A model generated the notes under the pieces. It made no database searches, was not told where the DNA came from, and saw only the letters and a list, made by a program, of their open reading frames with translations. Positions 1-43,392 of a DNA stretch of 51,701 nucleotides are shown here, one piece after another. Made by a program: the position numbers and the translations under genes. The stretch comes from a virus (lineage: Duplodnaviria; Caudoviricetes), in IMG/VR virus record IMGVR_UViG_3300037313_000136, positions 1-51,701 of that record, one strand, 5' to 3'. Numbering within the stretch: position 1 is the first letter of the stretch; each line of letters opens with the position of its first letter.

Positions 1-127
1 CTGCCTGACGATGCTGACTTGGTTGTGTTCACGGGGTCGTCACACGATATTGACCCTCAGTTGTATGGGCAGCCACCACACAAATCGGTTACTCTCAATC
101 CTGCGCTGGACAAGGCAAATCTATCAT
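1..127. repeat. 127-bp direct repeat of 51575-51701 (circular assembly overlap)
   Basis: Identical sequence at both ends; it falls inside one continuous ORF, and 127 is a common assembler k-mer. Confidence 0.95.
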
Positions 128-672
128 TGTTCAGCTTTTGTAAAAACCGTGGCATTCCAATGTTTGGTGTGTGCGGCGGAGCACAGTTGCTTCACGTAGC
201 AAATGGTGGAGCGTTGTATCAGGACGTGGACGGACATAACTCCGGTCATACGATGTGGGACATTCGAAACAAGGAATTTATCCAGAGCGTTTCTTCAATA
301 CACCATCAGATGTGTATTCCAAACGAGAATATGGAAATTCTTGGCACATCTCACGCAGCCAAGGAACGGTGGCTAAATCCTCTTGAATGTGTGAGAGGGA
401 GTCGTGCAGATGTAGAGGCGTTCTTCTACCGTGAAACCATGTGTCTTGGTGTTCAGGGGCATCCTGAGTATGCAGGATACAACAAATATACGGTGTGGTG
501 CCTCAGGGAAATTGACCGTATGTGTAATGAAAACCCTGATCTCAGTTACAGAGTAAACGATGCAGGTGTAAATCATCTTCGTATTAACGAGGATTTGTTA
601 CAGAAAAGACAGTCAGAGACTATCACTATTCCTTCGGAAGATGTGATTATCGTTGAGCCGATAAAGGAATAA
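1..672 (+). CDS. Class I glutamine amidotransferase / peptidase C26-like protein, 3' part (gene starts at 51218 and wraps)
   Basis: LVVFTGSSHDIDPQLYG, GVCGGAQLLHVANGG (nucleophile Cys), SIHHQ and GVQGHPE (His-x-Glu) motifs. Confidence 0.9.
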   Translation: MPDDADLVVFTGSSHDIDPQLYGQPPHKSVTLNPALDKANLSLFSFCKNRGIPMFGVCGGAQLLHVANGGALYQDVDGHNSGHTMWDIRNKEFIQSVSSIHHQMCIPNENMEILGTSHAAKERWLNPLECVRGSRADVEAFFYRETMCLGVQGHPEYAGYNKYTVWCLREIDRMCNENPDLSYRVNDAGVNHLRINEDLLQKRQSETITIPSEDVIIVEPIKE

Positions 673-677
673 CTAAC

Positions 678-686
678 ATGTGTGGT
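678..686 (+). other. Original start (Met-Cys-Gly) of the class II amidotransferase, separated from its body by the HNH insertion
   Basis: AAAGGA RBS (663-668), then ATG TGT GGT; TGTGGT recurs at 1198-1203, where CGIVGIAG continues. Confidence 0.8.
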
Positions 687-1109
687 TTATTGAGAAGCCT
701 CTATCCAATCTGCAATTCTTCGTAGTTCTTGCGGAGTAGAATTGCCTTTCTTTGAGTTGCAAAGCTTACATATAACTGCAATGTTACCTTTGAAATAGCC
801 CTCTACTGGGTTAATTCTGTCAAGAGTTGGGCTAAAAATCGAACCTCCTTTAGTTCCAATTGCTACTTTCATTTCCGTAAAACAGATGGGACAAATCTTA
901 GGAACAATAATATCTTCCGGGGTTATGTTGTAAGCAACTCTTCGTTGAAGCATTGATCGAAACAATTTTTCATTTACAGGCCTATTTCGTTCGTATTCTT
1001 TAGCATAACTTCTTCGCTTGTCCATATTACGGTGTTTCCAACGTAAGTGAGCAGCTCTTGCCTTTTGTTTTCTTTCTTCTGGCCAATCTCTATAAGAAAG
1101 CTTAGAAAT
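687..1109 (-). CDS. HNH-family homing endonuclease, probable ATT start at 1109
   Basis: CPIC...PTLDRINPVEGYFKGNIAVICKLCNSKK; frame open 28 codons upstream of ATG 1025 to an ATT 7 nt after AAGGAG. Confidence 0.85.
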   Translation of the reverse strand: MSKLSYRDWPEERKQKARAAHLRWKHRNMDKRRSYAKEYERNRPVNEKLFRSMLQRRVAYNITPEDIIVPKICPICFTEMKVAIGTKGGSIFSPTLDRINPVEGYFKGNIAVICKLCNSKKGNSTPQELRRIADWIEASQ

Positions 1110-2388
1110 GTTTGCACTCCTTTCTACTATCTATACACTATTATACCATATTTGTGCGGGATTGTCAAGTGCAAACACATCGCACTTCATTCTTGGCTGT
1201 GGTATTGTAGGAATTGCTGGTGACATCTTCTACAAAGAGGAGCGTACCATGCAGGCTTTGTTCTTGGCGGATTACCTTCGTGGTACCGACTCAACGGGTC
1301 TTGCGGCGGTAAGGAACAATGGTGATGTTAAGATAGCAAAACTAGCCAGCGACCCAATCACTTTGTTCCAAATGACCCAGTTTAAGAATGCTCTTAATGG
1401 CAACAACAGTAAGTTGTTCCTTGGCCATAACCGAGCAAGCACGTCAGGTAGTACAACCAACTACAACGCTCACCCTTATCAGTTTGGTCATATCGTAGGC
1501 GTTCAGAACGGAACGCTTGCGTATGGCGACCAGACAATGCTGGAAGAAATTCTTGATGAGAAGTACGAAGTTGATAGTCAGGCTTTGTTTGCTTGTATTG
1601 CCAAGATCGGTGTGAAAGACACCGTGAGTATGCTCAAGGAAGGTGCCACGTATGATCGTGGCGCTTGGGCATTGGTTTGGTATGACATGAAGGAAGATAC
1701 AATTAACTTCCTTCGTAACAAGCACCGTCCGATGTGGATGGCGTGGGATGAAGGCTTCAAGCGGCTGTTCTTCGCCTCACAGTGGAGGATGCTGGACTAC
1801 GCTAGTGACATGGCCTCTTCTCCGTATAAGTGGGAGATATACGAACGTAAGGAAGAACCCGGCAAGTTCTACAGGTTCTTCCAGCTTCCTGAGAACCAAC
1901 ACTGGAAGTTCAACCTAGATGAAATGAGAAAGGGCAGTAAGTCTAGGCCGAAGCCAATTGTTCGGGAAATCAAGGGAAGGGAGCCTGCACCGGCGGCAAA
2001 GAAGCCGGTGTACGACCCTTTTCCAGTTCGTGGCACTATCCAGACGACTCCTCAACCTTCCTCGACGACGACCTCCCACCTTGGTACTAACAGACGTGGT
2101 GAAAAGTTAATTCACTTCACAGCTACACCAGATGAGCCGTATGCCAATGTTATTGGTATGATGAGGTTCGCAGAACTCACCGGCATGTCTGGAAATGGAA
2201 CTCAAACGGGCTGTTCGTTCTGTTACGCAGATATTCCTTATGGTTCACCGGGGATTACTGTGTATGAGGAACAGGATACAATCTTGTGCAGACATTGTAG
2301 TGGTCACGGCCCCGGTGAGGAGCTACCTGCTGCCAAGGTGTATGTAAGTAGTAAAGACTTTGAAACTCTACAGAAGAAGGCTGCATAA
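1108..2388 (+). CDS. Class II (Ntn) glutamine amidotransferase; mature start Cys at 1198
   Basis: CGIVG, LRGTDSTG, LGHNRAST, NAHPY, GVQNGT and EVDSQ motifs; C-terminal CxxC/CxxC domain. Confidence 0.9.
   Translation: MFALLSTIYTLLYHICAGLSSANTSHFILGCGIVGIAGDIFYKEERTMQALFLADYLRGTDSTGLAAVRNNGDVKIAKLASDPITLFQMTQFKNALNGNNSKLFLGHNRASTSGSTTNYNAHPYQFGHIVGVQNGTLAYGDQTMLEEILDEKYEVDSQALFACIAKIGVKDTVSMLKEGATYDRGAWALVWYDMKEDTINFLRNKHRPMWMAWDEGFKRLFFASQWRMLDYASDMASSPYKWEIYERKEEPGKFYRFFQLPENQHWKFNLDEMRKGSKSRPKPIVREIKGREPAPAAKKPVYDPFPVRGTIQTTPQPSSTTTSHLGTNRRGEKLIHFTATPDEPYANVIGMMRFAELTGMSGNGTQTGCSFCYADIPYGSPGITVYEEQDTILCRHCSGHGPGEELPAAKVYVSSKDFETLQKKAA
1140..1168 (-). promoter_or_regulatory. Consensus sigma70 promoter for the HNH gene
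   Basis: TTGACA-atcccgcacaaatatgg(17)-TATAAT with extended -10 TG. Confidence 0.85.
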
Positions 2389-2390
2389 CA

Positions 2391-3488
2391 ATGCCAACGC
2401 TTTATAATCCTGAAGTCTCTGCTTTTGGGCAATACACACCCAATTTCATTGTTGGTAATCCTCAGCATATCGCTGAAATAATGCTGCATCCATACAATGA
2501 ATCTGCGCTTAATTCTTGGCGCGCTCTAGGGCTGTATCCTGATGTGATAGCCATTATAGATAACACCAACAAGGGTGAGGCGGCACAGGTGAAAATGGCT
2601 AAGAGAGCTAGGACTGTCAAAGAAAACAAACCCGGTAAAATCCTTGAAGGGTTTACGTTGGGAGCTGACCCGGAATTGTTCGTGGTTGATACCGATGGAG
2701 TACCGGTCTGCGCGGATATGATACCCGGCACCAAGGATGAACCTTACAAGGTAGAATTTGGTGCAGTTCAGCGTGACGGTTTCGCCGCTGAATACAATAT
2801 TGACCCCTGTTCCACATTTGAGGAGTGGAACCGCAACCACAAGGCGGTTCAGGGGCAGCTACAAGACATGTTGCCGAAGGGCTTTAAGCTGGTGGCAACC
2901 CCGGCAGTTCGCTTCTCCCCGGAAGTCTTTGATGCTGCCCCTGACATGGCAAAGGAGTTGGGTTGTCAGCCTGACTGGAATGCGTGGGAGGCTGCGCTCA
3001 ATCCTCCACCACGTTTGCCCGATGATCCTCGTCTTAGGTGTACTGGTGGCCACATTCACGCTGGATGGTTGCCGAAGGGCGAAGAGGGTTACGATGTACA
3101 CGACACTCAGCACATGATGAATTGTTTTGATCTGACCAAACAGTTTGATTGGTTCCTTGGTACTTGGTCACTCAAGCATGACAAGGACGTGGAGCGTCGT
3201 CGTCTCTACGGTAAGGCCGGTTCGTGCCGAATAAAACCTTATGGTGTTGAGTATAGGGTTCTATCCAGTTTTTGGGTACTCGAAAAAGAACTGAGACTTG
3301 AGGTGTGGAACCGAGCTTGTCTCGCCATTACCTGCATGTCGAAGTACTTCTTGCCCGAACAAATCTCACCGGGGTTTAGTGATATTCTCCGAAGCTCCAT
3401 CAACAATGGACATTTGGACAGTAGCATAACATCTAATGTTAAGTTCCCCGTTAGCACTCTAACCCCTCCATTTTCTATGGCCGCCTGA
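2391..3488 (+). CDS. phiEco32-like COOH-NH2 ligase type 2
   Basis: TLGADPELF, VQRDGFAAEYNIDP, LGCQPDWNAW, GGHIH, RRLYGKAG and YGVEYRVLS; an alternative start near 2594 is possible. Confidence 0.88.
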   Translation: MPTLYNPEVSAFGQYTPNFIVGNPQHIAEIMLHPYNESALNSWRALGLYPDVIAIIDNTNKGEAAQVKMAKRARTVKENKPGKILEGFTLGADPELFVVDTDGVPVCADMIPGTKDEPYKVEFGAVQRDGFAAEYNIDPCSTFEEWNRNHKAVQGQLQDMLPKGFKLVATPAVRFSPEVFDAAPDMAKELGCQPDWNAWEAALNPPPRLPDDPRLRCTGGHIHAGWLPKGEEGYDVHDTQHMMNCFDLTKQFDWFLGTWSLKHDKDVERRRLYGKAGSCRIKPYGVEYRVLSSFWVLEKELRLEVWNRACLAITCMSKYFLPEQISPGFSDILRSSINNGHLDSSITSNVKFPVSTLTPPFSMAA

Positions 3489-3495
3489 GGTTAAT

Positions 3496-4257
3496 ATGGA
3501 ATACAAGAATTTCTTCGAGAACCAGAAAGAAGCAGCGATGCGTCTTCAGCAAACTGTCGTCCTGTACGATGGTTCGCCTGTGGAGATTGTGTGTGTTGCC
3601 GATCATCCTGATGGGATACTCAGGGCTTACATCAGACCCACAGGATATACACCTGCCGAGTTTGATAGTATGCCGAAGCCTTCTTCGTCGCACATGGCGA
3701 ACGCCGCGTACACTTCTAGTTTGGCTACATACATGGACACGTTCATCCAAGATAATCCCGGTTGTGGTATTATTCGCAAACATCTGAACTCACCACTGTT
3801 CAACAAGTTCAGGCCGTTTGAACTTGGAATGTACTGGAACCCGCCACATGTATATTATGTGGAGAGACAGCCTAATCGCCGAGTGGAGCAGGGCCTAATC
3901 AAACCCATGATCGTAGCCACGAAGCTTACACCAATTCCTGAGAAGGGTGAGAACGTCAGTGGTGACGTTGACTTATTTGGTCCTGAGATGAAGCGGTGCA
4001 TCATTGGTGAGCATCCAAGTCCCAAGCGGTGTTTGGAAGCTATCCATGATGATAGGCTTGACTGTAAGGCCGCAGCATTTGATCGCCACTTCGCATTGGT
4101 TCGTGGTCCAATCGGAACTCTGTTCCTTGCATACAAGAACAATGTGATTGGTCAGTTACCCAATGGTGACTATGACAAGGTTAAGCTAGGAAAAGCCTAC
4201 ACCTATTGTAAAGAGGCAGTTGCCGATTTACATCTATTTAACAATATCATTAGCTAA
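3496..4257 (+). CDS. Hypothetical protein of the amidoligase cluster
   Basis: 253-aa ORF with GAGG RBS between the two ligase genes. Confidence 0.8.
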   Translation: MEYKNFFENQKEAAMRLQQTVVLYDGSPVEIVCVADHPDGILRAYIRPTGYTPAEFDSMPKPSSSHMANAAYTSSLATYMDTFIQDNPGCGIIRKHLNSPLFNKFRPFELGMYWNPPHVYYVERQPNRRVEQGLIKPMIVATKLTPIPEKGENVSGDVDLFGPEMKRCIIGEHPSPKRCLEAIHDDRLDCKAAAFDRHFALVRGPIGTLFLAYKNNVIGQLPNGDYDKVKLGKAYTYCKEAVADLHLFNNIIS

Positions 4258-6547: not shown

Positions 6548-6751
6548 ATGCGTTGTAACATATGCGATAGCCTGCTGTCGCAACCCCGATATAATAGAGA
6601 ACTAGAAGCGTGGGAACCATGTGATACTTGCATGGAAGTTATCCAAGAATGTCTAAATGACCTTAAGGATAACGCGGTCTTTGTCGAAGACGACGAGTTT
6701 GCCGCCATTGATGAAGCAGGAATTCCCCTACCAATTGAAGAAAGTACTTGA
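6548..6751 (+). CDS. Small CxxC-CxxC protein with acidic tail
   Basis: AAGGA RBS; CNIC and CDTC. Confidence 0.7.
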   Translation: MRCNICDSLLSQPRYNRELEAWEPCDTCMEVIQECLNDLKDNAVFVEDDEFAAIDEAGIPLPIEEST

Positions 6752-6776
6752 CAAGCCATACTAGTTATGGTATAAT
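6748..6776 (+). promoter_or_regulatory. Consensus sigma70 promoter upstream of primase/polymerase
   Basis: TTGACA-agccatactagttatgg(17)-TATAAT. Confidence 0.88.
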
Positions 6777-10695: not shown

Positions 10696-10724
10696 TTGAC
10701 AAATGCTAACTAACATGGTATAAT
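10696..10724 (+). promoter_or_regulatory. Consensus sigma70 promoter upstream of SSB
   Basis: TTGACA-aatgctaactaacatgg(17)-TATAAT. Confidence 0.88.
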
Positions 10725-32996: not shown

Positions 32997-33260
32997 TTAG
33001 GGTTTGGATTGGTCATCCTTAGGAGTACAAAGCATTGCGATTTGTCGCATCGCCTTGCGGTACCCTAACCAGTGAGCTTGTTTCATAGCCCAGTTAGGGT
33101 TTTCGAAGTCAGTGTCACTTACTTCTGAACTCTTACACATATTATAACATATTTCTGCGAGTTTGTCAAGTAGTTTTTGATTTCCTTCCAACAAACCGAG
33201 AAATTGCATCTTCTCGGGATTGCTTAGCCCTGTGGTCCAGTGGGGGTCGTACTTGATGAT
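32997..33260 (-). CDS. Hypothetical protein between portal and scaffold, probable ATC start
   Basis: AAGGAG 7 nt before an in-frame ATC at 33260; ATG 33209 lacks an RBS. Confidence 0.65.
   Translation of the reverse strand: MIKYDPHWTTGLSNPEKMQFLGLLEGNQKLLDKLAEICYNMCKSSEVSDTDFENPNWAMKQAHWLGYRKAMRQIAMLCTPKDDQSKP
33141..33169 (-). promoter_or_regulatory. Consensus sigma70 promoter for scaffold/capsid genes
   Basis: TTGACA-aactcgcagaaatatgt(17)-TATAAT. Confidence 0.85.
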
Positions 33261-43245: not shown

Positions 43246-43274
43246 ATTATAACATATTTAAATCTAAATGTCAA
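43246..43274 (-). promoter_or_regulatory. Consensus sigma70 promoter heading the structural arm
   Basis: TTGACA-tttagatttaaatatgt(17)-TATAAT. Confidence 0.88.
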
Positions 43275-43363: not shown

Positions 43364-43392
43364 TTGACAAACCCTTCAGTATATGTTATAAT
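43364..43392 (+). promoter_or_regulatory. Consensus sigma70 promoter, divergent from 43246-43274
   Basis: TTGACA-aacccttcagtatatgt(17)-TATAAT. Confidence 0.85.

Follow-up and report, generated by a model that had tools for sequence, protein, structure and literature searches.

How can a gene whose enzyme works through its N-terminal cysteine accommodate a mobile element placed just behind that cysteine? The question is raised by the virus record IMGVR_UViG_3300037313_000136, a complete, metagenome-assembled record of 51,701 bp with direct terminal repeats (hereafter the window, which denotes this whole stretch) that derives, going by the run labels, from soil and rhizosphere metagenomes. Near its left end, a gene for a class II, N-terminal nucleophile (Ntn), glutamine amidotransferase is interrupted after codon 3 (Met-Cys-Gly) by an antisense cassette that encodes an HNH-type endonuclease. 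We consider it very probable that a free-standing antisense homing cassette inserted at this point and that the gene was retained. The fuller account, in which the cassette arrived by one-sided homing, the enzyme is translated from within the cassette and the resulting leader is removed, appears to us about evenly balanced.

Anatomy of the Interrupted Gene

Direct reading of positions 1 to 2700 bore out throughout the anatomy that an initial annotation, made from the sequence alone, had given for 678 to 1206, including the antisense, promoter-bearing HNH cassette after codon 3. The parts of the interrupted gene are the following.

Positions 664 to 669, plus strand: native Shine-Dalgarno (SD) sequence AAGGAA of the class II amidotransferase gene (duplex -5.6 kcal/mol)
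Positions 678 to 725, plus strand: native start ATG TGT GGT (678 to 686) with the stub that follows it (direct reading)
Positions 681 to 686, plus strand: left TGTGGT copy, putatively the recipient's Cys-Gly codons (direct reading)
Positions 1198 to 1203, plus strand: right TGTGGT copy, Cys31-Gly32 of the 426-amino-acid (aa) open reading frame (ORF), where C31 and G32 are invariant in alignment A1
Positions 1198 to 2388, plus strand: body of the class II (Ntn) glutamine amidotransferase, 396 codons plus stop (PF13522, E 2.3e-11; phrog_4736, E 1.3e-55)

An insert of 517 nucleotides (nt), positions 687 to 1203, separates ATG TGT GGT from the remainder of the gene, which continues after the right TGTGGT copy with ATT GTA GGA. 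The antisense endonuclease ORF takes up 423 of the 517 nt, and the insert is placed right after GGT because the stop codon of this minus-strand ORF lies at 689-687. The native SD is left stranded on the left side of the insert, and the native frame is now a 15-codon stub, MCGLLRSLYPICNSS, with its stop at 723-725. As encoded in the window, the Cys stands at position 31 in the one ORF that possesses a start and follows a GGC codon; it is not residue 1, and would become so only after processing.

The amidotransferase domain matches GATase_6 (PF13522) and PHROG 4736 but does not belong to a PurF orthologue, and a Cys-rich domain is present at the C-terminus. Residues C31, R109, N134, G135 and D156 are invariant in alignment A1, in columns that we take to be catalytic from GlmS and PurF. 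In class II amidotransferases the catalytic Cys must be the free N-terminal residue. Among the 15 homologues nearest to it (55-65% identical), 14 have M/L-C-G-I-(V/G)-G as their N-terminus, the exception (P0014) having been called from an internal Met, and 40 of the 40 matches listed in a tblastn search against phage records begin at the Cys. This Cys is residue 2 in 115 of 123 stored family proteins, and query residue 31 is aligned to residue 2 in 129 of 150 representatives of a 50%-identity library; the displaced start in the window is therefore real. Among 74 metagenome loci, 67 have the N-terminus on the contig, and in 65 of these the Cys directly follows the start codon, with an SD-like motif within the 42 nt shown. 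The M-C-G-(I/L/H)-V-G codons, in which the insert lies, are where the N-terminus of the family is most strongly conserved.

The start codons of the 65 metagenome loci were ATG (46), ATT (10), TTG (5), ATC (3) and GTG (1), so non-canonical starts are unusually frequent for a single gene family. The 13 ATT or ATC starts (L007, L027, L030, L034, L036-L039, L053, L057, L065, L069 and L070) sit behind a clear SD-like motif of the AGGAG/GGAG type. Gene callers have either extended such genes to an upstream ATG (P0229, P0268) or let them begin too late, at an internal Met or Val (P0130, P0143, P0201 and others).

Selection on the Interrupted Gene

A variant lineage, present in runs X10 and X11, is diverged from the window by 2-4% and carries the insert. 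The contig tables allowed 40 of the 78 differences to be classified. In the mature amidotransferase (1198-1674) there were 8 synonymous and 0 non-synonymous changes; the upstream class I amidotransferase gene (GATase1) had 11 synonymous and 1 non-synonymous, the endonuclease 10 synonymous and 7 non-synonymous codon changes, and the leader, which comprises the 30 codons ahead of Cys31, had 1 synonymous and 1 non-synonymous (T7S). The three genes have accumulated comparable numbers of changes per synonymous site (~0.12 in GATase1, ~0.11 in the endonuclease and ~0.08 in the amidotransferase), and the cassette has therefore diverged together with its flanks and predates the split of the lineages. 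The ORF from 1108 is still open in the variant. With 104 synonymous and 373 non-synonymous sites, eight synonymous changes out of eight have, by our own arithmetic, a probability of ~5e-6 under neutrality. This pattern in the gene body argues that the amidotransferase is still under purifying selection.

The same counts bear on another explanation, also listed by the initial annotation, in which the insertion inactivated or crippled the amidotransferase. The 426-codon ORF would then be a construct of the gene caller, and the cassette would home regardless, the gene often being dispensable. In addition to the absence of non-synonymous changes among those listed for 1198-1674 between insert-bearing lineages, the single residue by which the four proteins of the window's 90% cluster differ (over the 218-396 mature residues covered), the invariance of the catalytic columns in alignment A1 and the persistence of the leader type in genes just 45-48% identical stand against a dead gene. 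We regard this explanation as unlikely; the points in its favour concern the sequence upstream of Cys31 and are given with it below.

Integrity of the Junctions and Fate of the Insert in RNA

As the window is an assembled record, the cassette might not truly lie inside the gene but have been placed there by misassembly or in a chimera, a case that the initial annotation had named as fatal to its reading. Among contigs compared with positions 1 to 2600, the left junction is bridged by X10 record 4 and X12 record 18, and the right junction by X10 record 5, X11 record 14, X9 record 24 and X12 record 19. Four further runs thus bridge the junctions, 11 runs contain at least half of the words of the stretch, and the identical 426-aa ORF is known from 8 contigs. 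The same architecture also recurs at an independent locus, L158, described below. A misassembly is scarcely conceivable. Runs X9-X11, which contain 0.56-0.60 of the words, were considered as a source of the empty allele and rejected, since what they contain is the variant diverged by 2-4%, with the insert.

Another possibility is that the insert is removed or skipped, through a self-splicing or trans-assisted intron or through long ribosomal bypass, so that M-C-G-I-V-G is restored. The matched GGT codons at 684-686 and 1201-1203 would suit such a route, as would the retention of the strong native SD and ATG. However, Rfam returned no intron family for positions 400-1600 at E up to 10, and no other family either, barring two chance-level matches, and the folding energy of the plus-strand RNA at 660-1230 equals that of shuffled sequences (z-score 0.11). 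Contigs of the RNA library X12 cross both junctions unspliced, at a depth of 2-4 and with DNA carry-over possible, and no insert-skipping joint was present in the contigs of four runs, in which depth is low and rare forms are dropped. The three lines of evidence agree with the lack of an intron core reported initially. The bypass suggested at that time is contradicted by the codon after the take-off GGT, which is TTA and not a stop, by the gap of 514 nt, and by the stop of the stub, which is not conserved (positions 723-725 read CAG in the variant lineage). In the bypass of T4 gene 60, matched Gly codons flank an untranslated gap that lies downstream of a mobile endonuclease insertion in the same T4 region; that gap is of ~50 nt with a stop after take-off, whereas in the window it would be ten times as long, such a stop is lacking and the stub is not conserved. 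L158, which has the same layout, possesses an explicit replacement start. Taken together, removal or skipping of the insert is very improbable. Precise deletion between the 6-nt repeats was considered as a routine means of restoration and rejected, as no skipping joint occurred in the four runs.

The Endonuclease Cassette and Its Expression Signals

The cassette proper comprises four features.

Positions 687 to 1109, minus strand: ORF of an HNH homing endonuclease that resembles PacI and endonuclease VII, running from ATT (1109-1107) through 140 aa to a stop at 689-687
Positions 1117 to 1124, minus strand: endonuclease SD GAAAGGAG, 7 nt before the ATT (-8.2 kcal/mol, the best in the region)
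Positions 1140 to 1168, minus strand: sigma-70 consensus promoter of the cassette, TTGACA at 1168-1163, 17-nt spacer, TATAAT at 1145-1140
Positions 1169 to 1197, plus strand: right arm of the cassette, 29 nt from the -35 box to the second TGTGGT

The encoded protein matches phrog_3322 ('endonuclease', E 1.5e-21, residues 11-138 of 140), phrog_1035 ('endonuclease VII', E 1.9e-13) and phrog_3118 ('HNH endonuclease', E 7.6e-06), and the Pfam HNH_5 match (E 0.0018) is under the cut-off. A TAG at 1133-1131 closes its frame, in which ATG1025 (Met29) is the first ATG, GTG or TTG. Judged by comparison with its relatives, the real start is ATT1109, because homology reaches residues 3-15 of the ATT-started protein, the N-terminus of the ATG-started homologue of L158 aligns with the ATT codon of the window, and the best SD of the region precedes it. 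The promoter matches the consensus at 12 of 12 positions and has a TG-extended -10 box, so that the region initially described as about 90 nt of promoter contains a perfect TTGACA-17-TATAAT with an upstream TG at 1168-1140. No plus-strand promoter was found within the insert, and the sole significant match (E <= 0.001) to the endonuclease in the record is the cassette's own, with no second copy.

Perfect promoters of this kind occur six times in the window against 0.01 expected, at 1140-1168(-), 6748-6776(+), 10696-10724(+), 33141-33169(-), 43246-43274(-) and 43364-43392(+). Most of them have TTGACAA...ATATG(G/T)TATAAT in common, and the endonuclease promoter resembles the phage's own promoters for the host polymerase. 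On the minus strand, a terminator-like hairpin with a T run lies at 608-624, inside the upstream GATase1 coding region and 63 nt past the endonuclease stop; a single site of this type was found against 0.6 expected by chance.

Comparison of five cassette endonucleases showed the motif LDR..GY..N..CN..K to be invariant or nearly so. In this endonuclease family, Leu-Asp-Arg (near residues 96-121 of the window protein) stands where endonuclease VII and HNH proteins usually have Asp-His, and Gly-Tyr is invariant. In the form LDR..GY..N..C..CN..K the motif resembles the restriction endonuclease PacI (PDB 3ldy/3m7k), an unusual HNH enzyme and the sole similar protein with a solved structure, likewise small and with paired Cys motifs, in which the canonical His of the HNH motif also reads Arg; the profile match (E 0.15) is below significance, and PacI serves restriction rather than homing. 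The cassette endonuclease may thus be a PacI-like catalytic variant used for homing. Conservation of the motif in five proteins, together with 10 synonymous versus 7 non-synonymous changes between lineages, argues that it is active. An endonuclease fold, a polymorphism between filled and empty sites, a conserved target and its own expression signals, four characteristics of a free-standing homing endonuclease, are found for the cassette, whose enzyme would be predicted to cleave the empty site and so promote its own inheritance.

Sister Cassettes, Empty Alleles and Remnants at the Same Junction

The insertion in the window is one of several at the same place. Locus L016 carries an endonuclease 38-40% identical to that of the window, in the same antisense orientation and with a homologous promoter, between the stop of the upstream gene and the amidotransferase ATG. 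Locus L015 is its empty allele, with an identical left flank and overlapping stop and start. Two further cassettes, L158 and L159, were found by a pattern scan of viral contigs; L157, which was returned by the same scan, proved unrelated and was rejected. The L158 cassette (endonuclease 38% identical) follows ATG TGC GGA C, the same place as in the window, and leaves the stub MCGLRL. Its right arm reads GAAAGGAA, 6 nt, and then ATT TGT GGT CTC GTA GGT, and thus provides a replacement ribosome-binding site, a start codon and a second Cys-Gly; the frame upstream of this Cys is shut by a TGA six codons ahead. The gene start of L158 is repeated over 10 nt, with three third-codon positions at which the copies differ. 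The endonuclease of L159 is the one closest to that of the window (50% identical), and its right arm has GGAG and ATG. The homologous promoter is present in all three of these loci, as are an SD and an amidotransferase start codon on the right arm, and the four full cassettes map within ~12 nt of one another at the start of the amidotransferase gene.

Empty alleles are represented by L156 and most of the 67 metagenome loci. Neither an empty-site nor an insert-bearing close relative of the window phage was recovered by megablast against phage records or by the viral contig scan, and an exact pattern across the right junction of the window found no relative. Remnants consisting of the promoter only precede the amidotransferase gene in L009 and L017-20. 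In L159:7734-7900, L017:2860-3100 and L009:2150-2245, a -35 box, a -10 box and an SD are present without an endonuclease ORF, and the tandem of remnant and full cassette in L159 suggests that elements have repeatedly invaded this one site and decayed there. Some of the ATT and ATC starts of the family may be footprints of cassette right arms like that of L158.

In the viral contigs, 0 of the 80 loci kept from 410 confirmed endonuclease stretches had an amidotransferase, GATase1 or ligase neighbour, and most of the endonuclease family therefore lives elsewhere. Because L016, L158, L159 and the remnants share the junction while those 80 distant loci do not, one endonuclease sub-lineage is, by its distribution, specialised on the first codons of the amidotransferase, at the junction of the class I amidotransferase and amidotransferase genes in a conserved cluster. 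More distant paralogues (25-34% identical) stand before other genes at L016:203-715(-) and at L158:311-613 and 3705-4019. The neighbours of the interrupted gene in the window are the following.

Positions 1 to 672, plus strand: 3' part of a class I glutamine amidotransferase / peptidase C26-like gene (ORF; PF07722, E 3.1e-19; PF00117, E 4.3e-08)
Positions 2391 to 3488, plus strand: phiEco32-like COOH-NH2 ligase, next gene of the cluster (PF14395, E 2.3e-05, slightly below the cut-off)

The class I gene has its TAA stop at 670-672, and its 5' end runs across the terminal repeat of the record. The ligase gene is also a neighbour in L015, L016, L158 and L159.

The layout of these loci is consistent with one-sided homing. 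A break after the Gly codon would have been repaired by homology on the right, within the gene, and by end joining on the left, so that the recipient's first codons were kept to the left of the break and the donor's 5' end of the gene arrived with the right arm of the cassette. Since L158 has the same layout with a diverged 10-nt repeat, the TGTGGT repeat of the window appears better explained as a recipient and a donor copy than as a target-site duplication of the transposon type.

Proposed Translation from within the Cassette and Removal of the Leader

If the amidotransferase is under purifying selection, it would have to be translated, and therefore from inside the cassette. The candidate segment is as follows.

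Positions 1108 to 1197, plus strand: in-frame 30-codon leader MFALLSTIYTLLYHICAGLSSANTSHFILG, antisense to the endonuclease start, 5' untranslated region and promoter; the frame is open from 1096

The plus-strand ORF at 1108-2388, which corresponds to the JGI gene call P0121, encodes 426 aa, with 30 codons ahead of Cys31 and the junction ILG/CGIVG (the slash marks the position before Cys). Its ATG (1108-1110) overlaps the minus-strand ATT (1109-1107) back to back, and the coordinates initially assigned to this leader proved correct. AlphaFold models the leader as a low-confidence helix (residues 2-23, predicted local distance difference test (pLDDT) score 42-50) detached from a reasonably modelled body (mean pLDDT 75.6). 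We infer that inefficient, SD-independent initiation at ATG1108 would produce the 30-residue leader, which would be cut between Gly30 and Cys31, probably by self-processing, and thereby free the catalytic N-terminal Cys. Cleavage in the window enzyme is proposed by analogy with other class II amidotransferases. The chance that this leader is both translated and self-cleaved falls, in our judgement, just short of even.

Two distant homologues have comparable extensions directly before the Cys. P0045 (Logan, 407 aa, 45% identical) has 34 residues ending AALG/CG, and P0133 (JGI, 364 aa, 48% identical over the aligned part) has 32 residues ending ITLG/CG. Both leaders read ...LLYHI...LG/CG, in which LLYHI is the -10 box read on the opposite strand. 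Two word searches with leader profiles found no LG/CG leader clusters beyond the three known, a blank that is weak evidence, and the comparison is biased in that only in-frame, open cases are visible as proteins. Scans of the viral contigs returned nothing for the P0045 locus and, for P0133, only L156, a 49%-identical relative with an empty site; the LG/CG right-arm pattern had three matches in these contigs, 0 of them at an amidotransferase gene. The initial annotation had pointed to relatives that keep the leader without the HNH gene as an observation that would refute its reading, and none was seen.

Several observations weigh against this account of expression and maturation. The right arm of the window has neither an SD nor a start codon adjoining the Cys, in contrast to those of L158, L016 and L159. 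ATG1108 lacks a usable SD, its -1.5 kcal/mol being worse than the background median (-2.4), TTG1162 has an SD match of -3.4 kcal/mol at zero spacing, and ATT1189 has none (+0.9 kcal/mol). Positions 1111-1197 are free of stops in all three plus frames, and the leader frame is open in 24% of mononucleotide shuffles, so the open leader could be due to chance. The consensus promoter fires head-on into the amidotransferase gene, and the endonuclease mRNA would pair around ATG1108. An antisense HNH gene at P0045 and P0133 is suggested solely by the sequence of their leaders, and in P0133 residues ~320-364 are unrelated sequence in place of the C-terminal Cys-rich domain of the family, which could reflect a frameshift or decay of that copy. 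No propeptide was found in family members without a cassette, whether among metagenome loci, stored proteins or representatives, and self-cleavage was therefore never needed in the family. The selection count amounts to 8 changes and assumes that the insert was inherited by both lineages and not gained separately. Finally, a hydrophobic leader with a lipobox-like end might misdirect the protein.

Some of these features are also what an inactivated gene would present: none of the in-frame starts ahead of Cys31 has an SD before it, chance alone could leave the leader open, the sister cassettes that preserve the gene have an explicit SD and a start by the Cys where the window has neither, and one of the three leader-bearing proteins, P0133, is without the C-terminal domain of the family. 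They likewise qualify the initial proposal that the element repairs its target. The part concerning donated 5' ends is supported by the SD and start on the right arms of L158, L016 and L159 and by the P0045 and P0133 leaders, whereas the specific route through ATG1108 is weakened by its missing SD and by a leader openness that chance could produce.

Initiation could also take place nearer to the Cys, as a variant of the same idea. From a near-cognate ATT1189 the product would begin Met-Leu-Gly before the Cys, only a tripeptide would be removed and the long leader would be irrelevant. ATT or ATC stands directly before the Cys in 13 of 65 family loci, the right arm of L158 uses ATT, and penicillin V acylase has a three-residue propeptide ending in Gly before its Cys. 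However, ATT1189 has no SD, whereas the ATT and ATC starts of the family follow a clear SD-like motif. Moreover, P0045 has no Ile near the junction and in P0133 the Ile is one codon further off, and the position of ATT1189 is therefore not conserved. We consider a start at ATT1189 quite improbable, and initiation at ATG1108 remains the preferred reading.

The ends of the leaders (..FILG within residues 21-30 in the window, AALG in P0045 and ITLG in P0133, each before Cys) fit what we take to be a relaxed lipobox. Lipoprotein-type processing was considered and rejected, as a basic n-region is missing from the leader, the protein is a cytoplasmic enzyme and attachment of a lipid would block its thiol. 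The resemblance is probably a by-product of T-rich antisense promoter DNA.

Comparison with Known Split Genes and Propeptides

Free-standing endonuclease genes that split phage genes include mobE in nrdA of Aeromonas phage Aeh1, mobA in the T4 topoisomerase gene and seg43 in gene 43, according to the passages on these 'genes in pieces' in the review PMC2988022. As described there, they resemble the window in that a phage gene is interrupted, at a conserved and functionally critical place, by an intronless HNH-type gene with its own expression signals, relatives have the uninterrupted gene, and the host gene still works. In those passages the split products are two sizeable polypeptides that reassemble, whereas the upstream piece in the window consists of three native codons. 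Because the Cys after the Met must be a free N-terminus, complementation in trans is impossible for the window gene. The window cassette also differs in being antisense and in lying in the first codons of an enzyme with a catalytic N-terminal residue, and its lineage differs in carrying replacement 5' ends on the cassettes, in the window type as an in-frame leader with possible Ntn self-processing.

Propeptides of class II amidotransferases, as in the glutamine phosphoribosyl pyrophosphate (PRPP) amidotransferases of B. subtilis and plants, are described as being removed autocatalytically, and the plant extension is also removed on expression in E. coli, in the relevant passages of PMC7056826 and PMC9140057. 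In the window, P0045 and P0133, as in PurF-type propeptides, the extension directly precedes the catalytic Cys of the Ntn domain. PurF-type propeptides are native and inherited with the gene, whereas the leader of the window is absent from relatives free of the cassette and is encoded antisense to a promoter.

Literature searches for a homing endonuclease in a phage glutamine amidotransferase and for split-gene precedents, made outside supplementary material, turned up no account of such an arrangement. New here are the sister cassettes at the same junction, the remnants, the replacement start of L158, the P0045 and P0133 leaders and the selection in an insert-bearing variant.

Implications for Homing into Gene Starts

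To our knowledge, the prevailing view restricts intronless homing endonuclease genes to intergenic DNA or to positions at which the halves of a split product can reassemble. The window cassette lies after codon 3 of a gene for which complementation in trans is impossible, yet this gene is under selection. The sister cassettes represent the plain solution to this problem, in which the element supplies the ribosome-binding site, the start codon and the first codons. The window would represent a second, candidate solution, an N-terminal leader that the Ntn enzyme may itself remove. More generally, and with a confidence somewhat below even, we tentatively propose that the cassette lineage carries a spare 5' end of its target upstream of its own promoter, and that in the window type this takes the form of an in-frame propeptide encoded opposite the promoter, 5' untranslated region and start of the endonuclease, which would work only because an Ntn enzyme could remove whatever stands before its nucleophile.

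If confirmed, the arrangement would also be a warning for annotation, given that callers truncate or extend such genes (ATT and ATC starts, false leaders) and miss the ATT start of the endonuclease. If true, the mobile element would pay for inserting itself with DNA that has a separate function on each strand, the same 90 nt being a promoter on one and propeptide-coding on the other. Ntn self-processing would then tolerate an arbitrary extension, and an intronless element could home into the opening codons of a gene whose first residue is catalytic without doing harm.

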